Origin: a virus
Taxonomy: Duplodnaviria; Heunggongvirae; Uroviricota; Caudoviricetes
Strand: one strand, 5' to 3'
Virus record (IMG/VR): IMGVR_UViG_3300022719_000283
Location: 366,590-398,589 of that record
DNA: 32,000 nt
The notes beneath the pieces are model-generated. The model had not been told where the DNA came from. It did no database searches and saw nothing but the letters and a program-made list of their open reading frames with translations. This document shows positions 1,356 to 22,260 of this stretch, in pieces. A program made the position numbers and the translations under genes. Each line of letters opens with the position of its first letter. The first letter of the stretch is position 1.

Positions 1356-2732
1356 ATGTCTTCCCACACCAAAAAGCCCGAGCTCTGGCTCAAGTTTCTA
1401 GAACAGAAGTTCGGGGCGGAGGGAGGGCGGACTAAAGTTCCGAACACGAACACCGAATCTCGTGACAAGTACCCCAAGGTCACGGTTTTCACTCTTCTGC
1501 GCACCGACAGCCGATTCCGGCGCCAAGTCCTTCAGGAATATCGGCGATGGCGACAAGCCCTCAAAGAACAGGCGGCCAAGGGCACTCGTCGAACACCTAT
1601 CCGGATCAAGAGCAAGATCGAGGTGCCCAAGGGAGCACACGCCATCCACAAGTTGATGAAGGATGCCGGCCACGAGCTCTATCTCGTAGGAGGCTCCGTG
1701 CGAGACCATGTGCTCGGCAAGAAGCCCAAGGACTTCGATCTTGCTACGGAGGCATCTCCCGAACAGATCATCGACATCTTGTCGAAAGACAAGCGATTCA
1801 AAGACAAGCTGGACCTCACGGGTGAGCAATTCGGTGTGGTCCGAGTGCGCGATCCGGAAGGCGAAGAATACGAGATCGCCACTTTCCGTGAGGACATCGG
1901 GGAAGGACGTCGCCCGGACGAAGTGAAGTTCACGACCATCGACGAGGATGTGGCTCGCCGGGACTTGACCATCAACGCTCTGTTCTACGACCTGGATACG
2001 AATGAGATCGTCGACTACGTGGGAGGTATTAAAGACGCCAAGGAGGGCGTTATCCGAACTGTGGGGCGCCCCAAGGATCGCTTTCGTGAGGACAAACTTC
2101 GAGTGCTCCGAGTGCTTCGTTTTGCGGGACGCCTAGGCGCTGAGATCGATGACGAGACCTCGAAGGCGATCAAGGATGATCCTGACCTGCATGAAGTGTC
2201 CTCCGAACGCATCCACGATGAGTTCGTTCGAGGCATTACATCGGCGAAAGACCCGAAGCACTACCTCAAAATGATGGATGACCTCAACTTGTTTGAGCAG
2301 GTGTTCCCCGGCCTCAAAGTGGGCAAGACCTACCTGGACACACCGGACCCAGTTCTCCAGATGACCAGTATCCTTCGGGACAACAAACCCGAAGACATCG
2401 AACGAGTCATGCGCGAGATGACGTACACGAAGAATGAGATCCAGAAGGTCTTGTTCTTGCTAAAGATGCGGGATCTCGAGCCGGAAACCGCGTACGGTCT
2501 CAAGAGGGTTTTCAACAAACTGAAGCTGAACCCCTCCGATCTCATGGCCGCAGCGAAAGCTCTGGGGACTCCTTCCATCGACAAAGTCAAAGCCTTCGCC
2601 AACTTTGCCGAGGCACCCCCCGCGTTGACGGGCAAAGAGCTCCTGGAGCGCGGAATGAAGAAGGGCCCAGAGATGGGTCGGGCCATCGCCAAAGCCGAGC
2701 AAGAAGCCTACGAAGCCCTTCTGGCGGACTAG
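1356..2732 (+). CDS. cca: CCA-adding enzyme / tRNA nucleotidyltransferase (class II, PolyA_pol head domain) with an N-terminal extension of about 85-95 aa
   Basis: Motifs present: LYLVGGSVRDHVLGKKPKDFDLAT (GGxVRD...DxD), RRDLTINALFYD and EDKLRVLRVLRFAGRL. The GGSVRD motif starts only at about residue 112, so the N-terminus is extended. No C-terminal HD motif was seen. Confidence 0.9.
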   Translation: MSSHTKKPELWLKFLEQKFGAEGGRTKVPNTNTESRDKYPKVTVFTLLRTDSRFRRQVLQEYRRWRQALKEQAAKGTRRTPIRIKSKIEVPKGAHAIHKLMKDAGHELYLVGGSVRDHVLGKKPKDFDLATEASPEQIIDILSKDKRFKDKLDLTGEQFGVVRVRDPEGEEYEIATFREDIGEGRRPDEVKFTTIDEDVARRDLTINALFYDLDTNEIVDYVGGIKDAKEGVIRTVGRPKDRFREDKLRVLRVLRFAGRLGAEIDDETSKAIKDDPDLHEVSSERIHDEFVRGITSAKDPKHYLKMMDDLNLFEQVFPGLKVGKTYLDTPDPVLQMTSILRDNKPEDIERVMREMTYTKNEIQKVLFLLKMRDLEPETAYGLKRVFNKLKLNPSDLMAAAKALGTPSIDKVKAFANFAEAPPALTGKELLERGMKKGPEMGRAIAKAEQEAYEALLAD

Positions 2733-5830: not shown

Positions 5831-5862
5831 AAAAACCGGGACCCTCGAAGAAGGGTCCCGGT
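5831..5862 (-). terminator. Rho-independent terminator (second of a tandem pair after tuf)
   Basis: On the minus strand, ACCGGGACCCU-UCUUCG-AGGGUCCCGGU forms a perfect 11-bp stem and is followed by UUUUUG. Confidence 0.6.
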
Positions 5863-5879
5863 AAAACAGCATCTTCATG

Positions 5880-5912
5880 AAAAAGCCCGGTGGGTTCAGG
5901 ATCCCACCGGGC
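5880..5912 (-). terminator. Rho-independent terminator immediately after the EF-Tu stop (possibly bidirectional)
   Basis: On the minus strand, GCCCGGUGGG-AUCCUGAA-CCCACCGGGC forms a 10-bp GC-rich stem and is followed by UUUUUC. On the plus strand the same stem is followed by CAGGUUUUU. Confidence 0.75.
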
Positions 5913-5919
5913 CAGGTTT

Positions 5920-7132: not shown

Positions 7133-7217
7133 TGGTTGGTGGGGTCGGAATCGAACCGACCGTGCGTAATACGCTGCGGATTTACAGTCCGCTTCGCCAC
7201 CTTGGCTGTTCCCACCA
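7133..7217 (-). tRNA. tRNA-Tyr(GUA), bacterial class II type, CCA encoded
   Basis: Anticodon arm GCGGA-CTGTAAA-TCCGC, long variable arm, T arm GTCGG-TTCGATT-CCGAC, then CCCACCA-A-CCA. The 85-nt length matches bacterial tRNA-Tyr. The exact 5' end (U1 versus G1) and the D-arm register are uncertain by hand. Confidence 0.8.
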
Positions 7218-7237: not shown

Positions 7238-7308
7238 TCCGGTCGGAGGGATTCGAACCCCCGGGGGGCATGGATTTCATGCCGTCTGACCACTCAGACC
7301 TCGACCGG
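7238..7308 (-). tRNA. tRNA-like gene with a 5-nt anticodon loop (identity undetermined, no CCA encoded)
   Basis: CCGGTCG-AG-GTCT-GAGTGGTC-AGAC-G-GCATG-AAATC-CATGC-CCCCC-GGGGG-TTCGAAT-CCCTC-CGACCGG-A. The acceptor is 7/7 and the D and T arms are canonical. The total is 71 nt, two short, and both missing nucleotides are in the anticodon loop. The alternative fold GGCAT-GAAATCC-ATGCC lacks both U33 and nucleotide 26. Confidence 0.6.
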
Positions 7309-7502
7309 GAACGATCAGGGCTCGCTCCGTGGGCTTAGATGTGGCTCAGAGGTTTAGTCCACCTGAGCGTCCAGCCAACCCACGGAGCTGCAAATAAGCT
7401 CGATACGTCGCGTACATCTGCTTGGCTCCTTCCATGGTTGGGGTTCTCAGGTAATCCCGCCTCAAGCGGGTTTGTCAAGTGTAGTCGAGCTTGATGCAAA
7501 CG

Positions 7503-7946
7503 TCAAGAGAGAAAGTCCGAAAATTTGCTGTCCTTCGTGAAGACGGGCCAGCCTCCTTGAACCCCTTCTTCTGGGGTCTGATCCGTCCAGGTCCGGTGGG
7601 CTTCAGCAACCCATTCACCCACGTAGCTTCCGATGAAGTATTTCACGTCGTCCGGAATTTCAACCACGGCTACTCCAGTGTGCTCCTCACTGACCATGCC
7701 CTCTGATCCGAGTTCGTCGAAGACCTGAAGCAAGGTGGGGTCGTGACGAGGGAGGGTGCTAAGGAGCGAGTATCCCGAATCTTCGCGGTGTTGGGTCTTT
7801 TTCTCATCCCCGTAGGCATAATGGTTCGGCTCATCCACAAGCGGCATGTGCTCCGTGGAGGCCCAGTCGGCTCCGAGCTCTCGGGCACGCAGAATCGCTT
7901 TACGAGAAAGCCAAAGAACGCAGTCATGTGAGATCAGGACTCGCAT
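7503..7946 (-). CDS. Hypothetical protein (weak paralog of 22751-23152)
   Basis: 147-aa ORF with MRVLISHDCVLWLSRKAILRARELGADW..., PRHDPTLLQVFDELG... and VAVVEIPDDVKYFIGSYVGEWV. By eye the pattern is shared with the ORF at 22751. Confidence 0.6.
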   Translation of the reverse strand: MRVLISHDCVLWLSRKAILRARELGADWASTEHMPLVDEPNHYAYGDEKKTQHREDSGYSLLSTLPRHDPTLLQVFDELGSEGMVSEEHTGVAVVEIPDDVKYFIGSYVGEWVAEAHRTWTDQTPEEGVQGGWPVFTKDSKFSDFLS

Positions 7947-21449: not shown

Positions 21450-21524
21450 TGGCGCCCTCGGCAGGATTCGAACCGCACGACCTTCTCCCGTGAAGGAAAT
21501 GCTCTACCACTGAGCTACGAGGGC
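21450..21524 (-). tRNA. tRNA-like gene, Val(CAC)-like, with weak anticodon and T stems (possible pseudo-tRNA)
   Basis: GCCCTCG-TA-GCTC-AGTGGTA-GAGC-A-TTTCC-TTCACGG-GAGAA-GGTCG?-TGCGG-TTCGAAT-CCTGC-CGAGGGC-G-CCA. The acceptor is 7/7 and the D arm is fine. The T stem pairs only 2-4 positions and the anticodon stem has a C:A mismatch. A competing hairpin is CCTTC-ACGGGA-GAAGG. Confidence 0.5.
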
Positions 21525-21831: not shown

Positions 21832-22260
21832 TCATTTGAGCAGCGGCAAGCTGCTGGTGACTTTCTTGACGAGCTTCCGATCAGCCACGGGACAGATCCC
21901 AAGGGCCATCAGGGCTCCGTTGTATGGAGGGTCGGGTTCCCGAACCGCCACATGAGGAATTGCGAAACGCTGCAACTTCTCCTCCAGGAACTTGAGGTGC
22001 TCCTCGCTCCTGGCGGCCAAAGCTACGGCGAACGTGCCGGTCGGGACGCCCTTCTCCGGAGTGCTCTCCCCTGCCGCATGGATCGTTTGGGCCACCGCGC
22101 ACCCAATCGGAAGATCCGCCCTCACGATGACATAGTGCGTCAGCGGATGGCAGGCCCTACGGGTTTCGAACCCGCTGCCCTCGAGACGCTTACCCTCGAG
22201 ACCCCTCCTCTGGGGAAGGCCCATGATGTTGTCGAGGAACCTTCGCAGGGTGGTGGCCAC
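21832..22260 (-). CDS. Peptidyl-tRNA hydrolase, PTH2 (archaeal/eukaryotic-type) family
   Basis: HYVIVRADLPIGCAVAQTIHAAG aligns by eye with the VxVRxDL..G...AQ..HAA core of PTH2. FAVALAARSEEHLKFLEEKL..., ...VREPD... and ALMALGICPV...LVKKVTSSLPLLK match the C-terminal half. The start may instead be M13 at 22224. Confidence 0.7.
   Translation of the reverse strand: MATTLRRFLDNIMGLPQRRGLEGKRLEGSGFETRRACHPLTHYVIVRADLPIGCAVAQTIHAAGESTPEKGVPTGTFAVALAARSEEHLKFLEEKLQRFAIPHVAVREPDPPYNGALMALGICPVADRKLVKKVTSSLPLLK

Follow-up and report, generated by a model that had tools for sequence, protein, structure and literature searches.

An anticodon-deleted copy of a conserved second tRNA-Tyr gene at the head of a phage tRNA-Tyr-tuf unit

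What is a tRNA-shaped gene with an anticodon loop of only five nucleotides doing at the head of a tRNA-Tyr-tuf unit, and how did it come by that loop? The gene lies in a stretch of 32,000 nucleotides (hereafter the window, G000:C1:366590-398589) of a single 618,736-bp virus-record contig with an estimated completeness of 92%. An earlier, sequence-only reading had placed the gene at the head of the unit, an order that we confirmed, and had proposed either a decaying captured tRNA or a deliberate non-decoding RNA in a bacterial setting. The setting has to be revised, as the replicon is a huge phage. ARAGORN predicts 54 tRNA genes that cover all 20 amino acids, Ile(GAU) included, the phage has its own CCA-adding enzyme, and an HAD domain of RNA-repair proteins and an AlkB-like oxygenase are encoded near the gene.

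The window gene (7238-7308, minus strand) reads CCGGUCG AG GUCUGAGUGGUCAGAC G GCAUG AAAUC CAUGC C CCCC GGGGG UUCGAAU CCCUC CGACCGG A. It is 71 nt long, has A as discriminator and is followed by UCG, so that CCA is not encoded, in agreement with the sequence-only reading. It can form four perfect helices, including a 7-bp acceptor stem and a 5-bp T stem, and has G18/G19 in the D loop and the canonical T loop UUCGAAU. The MFE fold (-37 kcal/mol, z = -3.7; none of 200 shuffles folded as well) is a cloverleaf with the 5-nt anticodon loop AAAUC, as had been described before. A 6-bp D stem with a GUGG loop (GUCUGA-GUGG-UCAGAC) is possible, and the core nucleotides U8, A14 and A21 are missing, with A8 and G9 at positions 8-9. 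ARAGORN called the gene tRNA-Ile(AAU) by assuming the 7-nt loop GAAAUCC and dropping nucleotide 26, which is the alternative fold without U33 and nucleotide 26 that had also been considered earlier. A canonical elongator loop (7 nt, U33 and a 3-nt anticodon) is absent, and the GAAAUCC reading has A33. Annotation tools would thus mislabel the gene as tRNA-Ile(AAU). General RNA models gave no assignment: RF00005 (Rfam tRNA) found nothing in the gene at its gathering threshold (29 bits), the best match in the Rfam tRNA clan was tRNA-Sec (16.1 bits, E = 1.9), and among the curated models of tRNA mimics mascRNA (RF01684) scored 16.1 bits against a threshold of 42.5 bits (E = 1.6) and YrlA (RF02553) had zero matches at E <= 10.

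The locus has clear counterparts, which were recovered via EF-Tu homologues, with four further contigs contributed by a metagenome pattern scan. EF-Tu homologues with 80-92% identity sit on metagenomic contigs with a conserved gene order, in which a homologue of the window ORF 7503-7946 is found upstream and the genes for PcfJ, HAD_SAK_2 and the CCA enzyme are found downstream. At the place of the window gene, the syntenic loci L037, L038, L043, L046, L048, L051, L060 and L003 carry a 74-75-nt tRNA(GUA) upstream of a class II tRNA-Tyr and tuf, a family for which we coined the name Tyr-2. The order in these loci is promoter, Shine-Dalgarno sequence and small ORF, long hairpin, the 74-75-nt tRNA, class II tRNA-Tyr(GUA) and then tuf. 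The anticodon is GUA in each of the nine intact orthologues of class-I shape and also in two class-II versions, and the 'Thr position' suggested by the sequence-only reading is thereby contradicted.

Tyr-2 is characterized by C1-G72, A73, two linker nucleotides (not U8), the absence of an encoded CCA, a 6-bp D stem with a GUGG loop, a C26:G44 pair on top of a 6-bp anticodon stem, the 7-nt anticodon loop CUGUAAC, a variable region of 4 nt and a canonical T arm. The loop is CCGUAAC in L038, and the distant L003 has UUGUAAA with a stem of only 5 bp. The general tRNA model of Rfam gives these genes 30-36 bits or leaves them below threshold. In an alignment of eight sequences, 97% of the cells were paired and 12 of the 25 pairs showed compensatory change; none of 500 shuffles matched this fold, and in slid controls pairing dropped to 34-54%. 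On the basis of this covariation and these controls, Tyr-2 is a real, selected and non-canonical tRNA.

The window gene is an orthologue of this family. A covariance model built from seven orthologues, with the window copy left out, aligned to the window copy over all 75 model positions with 76.3 bits (E about 4e-18), whereas the runner-up tRNA in the 618-kb genome reached 37 bits, and because of this difference the gene is not a chance set of hairpins. It also has the position of the family, between the leader ORF with its hairpin and class II tRNA-Tyr-tuf. A second, intact Tyr-2 was not found when the model was run over the whole genome. Two weak matches on the minus strand, at window 22150-22223 (23.8 bits) and at G000:C1:27384-27458 (27.6 bits), neither of them called as a tRNA by ARAGORN, may be further tRNA-like elements.

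In both the MAFFT and the covariance-model alignments, AAAUC stands in place of G-CUGUAAC-C in the orthologues. Nucleotides 32-35 (C32, U33, G34 and U35) are deleted, visible as a gap of four columns, and the window copy has in addition a G to A change at the loop-proximal stem pair and a C38 to U change. The former breaks the sixth pair, so that the family's CUGUAAC on a 6-bp anticodon stem is not present. The gene had been described as exactly 2 nt short with both nucleotides missing from the loop. The loop is indeed 5 nt long, but relative to the orthologues 4 nt are missing, corresponding to one stem pair and two loop nucleotides. As can be reasoned from the alignment, at least two substitutions are required wherever a contiguous 4-nt deletion is placed. 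The earlier conclusion that usual decoding is impossible stands, since U33 and the first two anticodon bases are gone.

In the EF-Tu tree the window is the sister of L037 (support 94/97) within a clade of GUA-bearing loci, and by this nesting the 5-nt loop is derived on the terminal branch of the window itself. The loop was absent from the nine class-I-shaped and two class-II orthologues. A 7-nt loop in close relatives was the very observation that the sequence-only reading had named as speaking against its proposal, and the orthologues do carry 7-nt GUA loops. We found no donor for the new loop. The best global alignment with the tRNAs of the genome and of 26 related loci scored 21.5 versus 71 for the gene with itself, which eliminates a recent paralogue as the source, and a hairpin that could have served as donor in gene conversion was not found in the genome. 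One hairpin near window 8365 does have an AAAUC pentaloop, but it lies within the AlkB-like gene and is a coincidence of coding sequence. When viral contigs were scanned for exact matches, the 17-nt anticodon arm returned only chance matches in coding DNA and the 24-nt half comprising T arm and acceptor returned none, and single queries with the flanking small proteins found nothing among the viral contigs.

The gene is part of an apparent transcription unit that runs from a sigma-70-like promoter to two terminators after tuf (Table 1). The promoter pattern TTGAC(G/C/A)-N17-TA.A.. was also found in L037, L038, L043 and L053. The leader ORF has 20-23 codons, 2-3 of them Tyr codons, across the loci, and its peptide, MxxTYRxYxWLRGSCGLIEG in the relatives, is preserved there through synonymous codon changes. 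The hairpin has an outer stem of 10 pairs, GCUCCGYGGG/CCYRCGGAGC, in which one pair covaries from U-A to C-G in four of 11 loci. Rfam gave no family match for leader or hairpin, with one hit at chance level only. The leader was found in 11-12 loci, some of them in bacterial Nannocystaceae records and some without Tyr-2, and it possibly serves the tRNA-Tyr-EF-Tu unit as a Tyr-sensing leader or attenuator. The ordinary tRNA-Tyr starts 20 nt downstream of the window gene and is followed after 55 nt by the EF-Tu gene. It scores below the Rfam tRNA threshold. L046, L048, L060 and L053 of Enhygromyxa salina share its reduced D arm (AA-CAGCCAAGGUGGCGA); as judged from this conservation, the reduced arm is a functional variant and not a lesion.

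Table 1. Features of the locus and of the surrounding window (window coordinates unless a locus is given).
Feature	Coordinates	Strand	Basis
Phage CCA-adding enzyme	1356..2732	+	Pfam PolyA_pol head and RNA-binding domains
Two intrinsic-terminator-like hairpins closing the unit after tuf	5835..5913	-	Sequence
Phage EF-Tu, 385 aa	5920..7077	-	Pfam GTP_EFTU, D2 and D3 domains
Ordinary class II tRNA-Tyr(GUA), U1-A72, A73, encoded CCA, reduced D arm	7133..7217	-	ARAGORN
Anticodon-deleted orthologue of the phage Tyr-2 tRNA(GUA) family	7238..7308	-	Sequence, fold, orthologues, covariation, family model
5-nt loop AAAUC	7273..7277	-	MAFFT alignments and covariance-model alignment
Long hairpin, 5' strand (GCUCCGUGGG) inside the leader ORF	7324..7389	-	Outer stem kept in 11 loci
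Conserved leader ORF (MYATYRAYLQLRG..., three Tyr codons) with strong Shine-Dalgarno AAGGAG	7346..7417	-	Conserved across relatives
Conserved leader	window 7324-7431; L037:2634-2745; L038:2626-2739; L043:2636-2745	- (window)	11-12 loci
Conserved leader, further loci	L046:840-951; L053:2614-2732; L069:1133-1235		11-12 loci
Sigma-70-like promoter TTGACG-17-TACACT, head of the unit	7478..7506	-	Sequence; pattern also in relatives

The unit of leader, tRNA-Tyr and tuf was also found in two bacterial records, Enhygromyxa salina (GCA_000737335.3, JMCC02000010.1; L053) and a Nannocystaceae MAG (L069), with EF-Tu proteins that are 78-81% identical to the phage EF-Tu. A scan of genome contigs with EF-Tu returned mostly ordinary bacterial EF-Tu at 54-62% identity and one close locus, L069. 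As the unit is common to these records, the Nannocystaceae are likely either the host group or the source of the unit.

Judged from its distribution, Tyr-2 is a dispensable gene, because it is absent, reduced or disrupted in several relatives. It is lacking in L058/59, which retain leader, tRNA-Tyr and tuf, and L040-42 have neither of the tRNA genes upstream of tuf. The Enhygromyxa salina assembly retains only a 36-nt hairpin of acceptor plus D arm (L053:2781-2816), and in the Nannocystaceae MAG it is disrupted, with the acceptor strands 134 nt apart (L069:1257-1390). In two of the loci without the tRNA genes, an IS605-type OrfB/TnpB (Cas12f-like) gene is found just upstream of EF-Tu (L041:281-1480 and L042:281-1480).

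The window copy resembles a pseudogene in that it descends from a functional tRNA and carries a disabling lesion that is absent from its relatives. Relaxed constraint elsewhere in the gene, as expected of a pseudogene, was not observed: 24 of 24 pairs form, and in the 54 columns outside the anticodon arm the window copy shows no state of its own. As there is no unique change outside the loop, the loss is recent unless constraint on the body has persisted. At four-fold-degenerate sites of tuf, the window differs from L037, its closest relative, by 0.71 substitutions per site and from the others by at least 0.9, and the divergence of the EF-Tu protein from that of L037 lies mostly on the window branch (0.087 versus 0.015). 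The flanks on both sides of the gene cannot be aligned with any relative. Positions that are invariant among the orthologues were changed in two of the five retained loop-region positions and in none of the 25 body positions (Fisher p = 0.023), and for the largest neutral distance that the body permits (0.12) the probability of two loop changes is about 0.10. These figures give a modest hint, suggestive only, that the body stayed under selection after the deletion, in which case a pseudogene reading needs a recent deletion or one complex event in the loop; the three loop changes could be such a single event. The tRNA region is mosaic relative to tuf, with an ordinary tRNA-Tyr in the window of the L046/L048/L053 type and not of the L037 type, and for this reason the branch lengths of tuf may not apply to the tRNA genes.

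We lean towards the explanation that the window gene is a recently disabled allele of a dispensable gene and at most a passive processing spacer; we do not see in it the product of selection for a role outside decoding. Tyr-2 is a conserved, structurally unusual second tRNA-Tyr(GUA) that lies, in related huge phages, between the leader ORF with its hairpin and the ordinary tRNA-Tyr with EF-Tu. A 4-nt deletion in the window's own lineage removed positions 32-35, among them U33 and anticodon bases one and two, and two further point changes produced the loop AAAUC, leaving an RNA without an anticodon that cannot decode. The genome already has the ordinary tRNA-Tyr beside the disabled copy. From its place inside a unit of promoter, leader, tRNA-Tyr, tuf and terminator, the gene is probably still transcribed, together with tRNA-Tyr and tuf. 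RNase P and CCA-adding enzymes recognise the half of a tRNA that consists of acceptor and T arm, and by these rules the intact half of the window RNA would be cut by RNase P and 3' nucleases and would receive CCA from the phage CCA-adding enzyme. A bacterial-type TyrRS would presumably not charge it without G34 and U35.

The main competitor is a retained, functional tRNA-like RNA without a decoding role, which we regard as possible but distinctly less probable. Such an RNA could act as a processing ('punctuation') module, in which the cloverleaf separates the leader from tRNA-Tyr-tuf, or as a decoy, in which the top half titrates binders of acceptor and T arm, for instance a host nuclease or toxin, the CCA enzyme or EF-Tu. 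In line with this, the body is unchanged although the 9-nt loop region has been hit by mutation at least three times and both flanks have diverged beyond alignment; the anticodon stem is perfect, with the window-specific pairs G26:C44 and G27:C43; and even the degraded bacterial versions (L053 and L069) have kept both acceptor strands in a form that can pair. However, the state is derived in one lineage only, the constraint statistics are weak (p between 0.02 and 0.1), and some relatives without Tyr-2 keep leader, tRNA-Tyr and tuf, so that a punctuation role is not essential. The 'deliberate' non-decoding RNA of the sequence-only reading, which finds no positive support and whose 5-nt loop occurs in no other lineage, therefore survives as a minority reading by way of the weak constraint on the body. 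Its other proposal, a decaying captured tRNA, holds as far as the decay is concerned, which the evidence favours, and fails for a bacterial Thr-position origin, which the GUA orthologues contradict.

The remaining explanations are much weaker. That a bacterial gene in the tRNA-Thr position is decaying here in an operon like thrU-tyrU-tufB seems hardly credible: the linkage of tRNA-Tyr and tuf is known to be ancient in bacteria and the leader-Tyr-tuf unit occurs in Nannocystaceae records, but the replicon is a virus record and none of the orthologues, all GUA, has a Thr anticodon. Equally improbable is an unusual mode of decoding, either as a tRNA-Ile(AAU) with the loop GAAAUCC or as a short-loop frameshifting tRNA. 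ARAGORN does call Ile(AAU), and tRNA-like genes with 6-nt and 9-nt loops exist elsewhere in the window. The 7-nt reading, however, has A33 in place of U33 and no nucleotide 26, needs melting of a G-C pair that is kept in the MFE fold, is found in no orthologue and does not fit the Tyr(GUA) ancestry of the gene, and the phage already has Ile(GAU). Moreover, bacteria do not normally decode with an Ile tRNA that has an unmodified A34. It is also very unlikely that a sequencing or assembly error hides a normal loop. Although all evidence consists of assembled sequence, an independent Logan assembly (SRR23862439, a 24-kb contig) is identical over 4,158 bp, loop included, which makes an assembler artefact unlikely, and the lesion is not a simple indel, as it combines a 4-nt deletion with at least two substitutions and involves no long homopolymer.

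The locus can be compared with several known systems. In E. coli, tRNA genes including that of tRNA-Tyr are co-transcribed with an EF-Tu gene in thrU-tyrU-glyT-thrT-tufB and released by RNase P and RNase E. The window unit likewise couples a tRNA-Tyr gene with an EF-Tu gene, but it is phage-borne, opens with a small leader ORF and a hairpin, and contains two Tyr-type genes and no Thr or Gly gene. The RNAs mascRNA and YrlA, which tRNA enzymes process, combine a tRNA-shaped top half with an 'anticodon' arm that does not decode. The window gene shares this combination of top half and arm, although it descends from a bona fide tRNA(GUA) gene and has no significant match in Rfam. The nearest known kind for the window copy itself is the tRNA pseudogene or fragment, as set apart from canonical tRNA genes in prokaryotes (PMC9897764): it is tRNA-derived, has a disabling lesion and is still called a tRNA, here Ile(AAU) by ARAGORN. 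In contrast to such fragments, it is neither truncated nor an integration scar, has precisely lost 4 nt of the anticodon loop, keeps four helices and the T loop and sits within an operon; a lesion this clean is unusual.

The Tyr-2 family comes closest to two known kinds, tRNAs whose anticodon stem has 6 bp and phage tRNA-Tyr genes that act against a defence by degradation of tRNA-Tyr. A 6-bp anticodon stem and a compact core are known from tRNA-Pyl, tRNA-Sec and mitochondrial tRNA-Ser(UCN) (reviewed in PMC7609411). Tyr-2 shares the 6-bp anticodon stem and resembles these tRNAs also in its 6-bp D stem with a 4-nt loop and its 4-nt variable region, but differs from them in having GUA, G18/G19, a canonical T loop, two linker nucleotides between acceptor and D arm and the 7/5 arrangement of acceptor and T stems; in the window copy, the anticodon stem has only 5 bp plus the G26:C44 pair. 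A tRNA-Tyr of T5-family phages rescues them from the tRNA-Tyr-degrading defence Retron-Eco7 PtuAB (PMC11555353), and changes in the anticodon loop allow phage tRNAs to escape anticodon nucleases (PMC10264068, PMC11464382). Like the rescuing tRNA-Tyr, Tyr-2 is an extra, sequence-divergent tRNA-Tyr(GUA) beside an ordinary one, and by this analogy it has the appearance expected of a back-up against tRNA-Tyr depletion. The window copy, having no anticodon, cannot rescue decoding.

The window gene alone matters little, and it is best seen as a natural 'anticodon-knockout' of Tyr-2. Its value is that it leads to a conserved, non-canonical, class-I-shaped tRNA-Tyr paralogue in huge phages, embedded in a unit of promoter, leader ORF, hairpin, tRNA-Tyr and EF-Tu that Nannocystaceae records share and that links the phage clade to a likely host group. 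The unit is a testable system for how phages secure tyrosine decoding, and a timely one now that both tRNA-Tyr-degrading defences and phage tRNA-Tyr countermeasures are known (PMC11555353). A comprehensive reading would see in it an anti-defence module for tyrosine decoding in huge phages that probably infect Nannocystaceae. The translated, Tyr-codon-rich leader and its hairpin would sense a shortage of tRNA-Tyr and control an operon that supplies the ordinary tRNA-Tyr, the restructured back-up Tyr-2 and a phage EF-Tu, and in the window the back-up would have been converted into an anticodon-less RNA that is still selected, either to aid processing as a module or to act as a decoy for binders of acceptor and T arm. 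Taken as a whole, we consider this reading rather unlikely.

Some further observations concern the tRNA machinery of these phages. RNase P RNA was not found in the window genome, whereas in L037 (EF-Tu 92%; a 201-kb ENA contig) a class-A RNase P RNA of bacterial type (L037:1-229, 130 bits, cut by the end of the locus) lies about 2.5 kb upstream of the Tyr-2 gene. A phage TyrRS able to charge a tRNA with C1-G72 was sought, and the only class-Ib synthetase in the genome proved to be a TrpRS (TIGR00233, 269 bits; G000:C1:345009-345851, minus strand, locus L052), which is encoded directly beside the genes for tRNA-Trp and tRNA-Cys. In a distant huge phage (L001, = L024; EF-Tu 71%), a 77-nt class-I-shaped tRNA with the anticodon UAG (leucine) sits just upstream of tRNA-Tyr-tuf (L001:2799-2875); for this phage group it is the second example of a class-II identity combined with a class-I body. 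Finally, the window contains two other tRNA-shaped genes with anticodon loops of unusual length, one at 20111-20189 (minus strand) with the 9-nt loop CGUAAGCAU on a 4-bp stem and one at 21450-21524 (minus strand) with the 6-nt loop UUCACG; both encode CCA and both score above the Rfam tRNA threshold, at about 51 bits.
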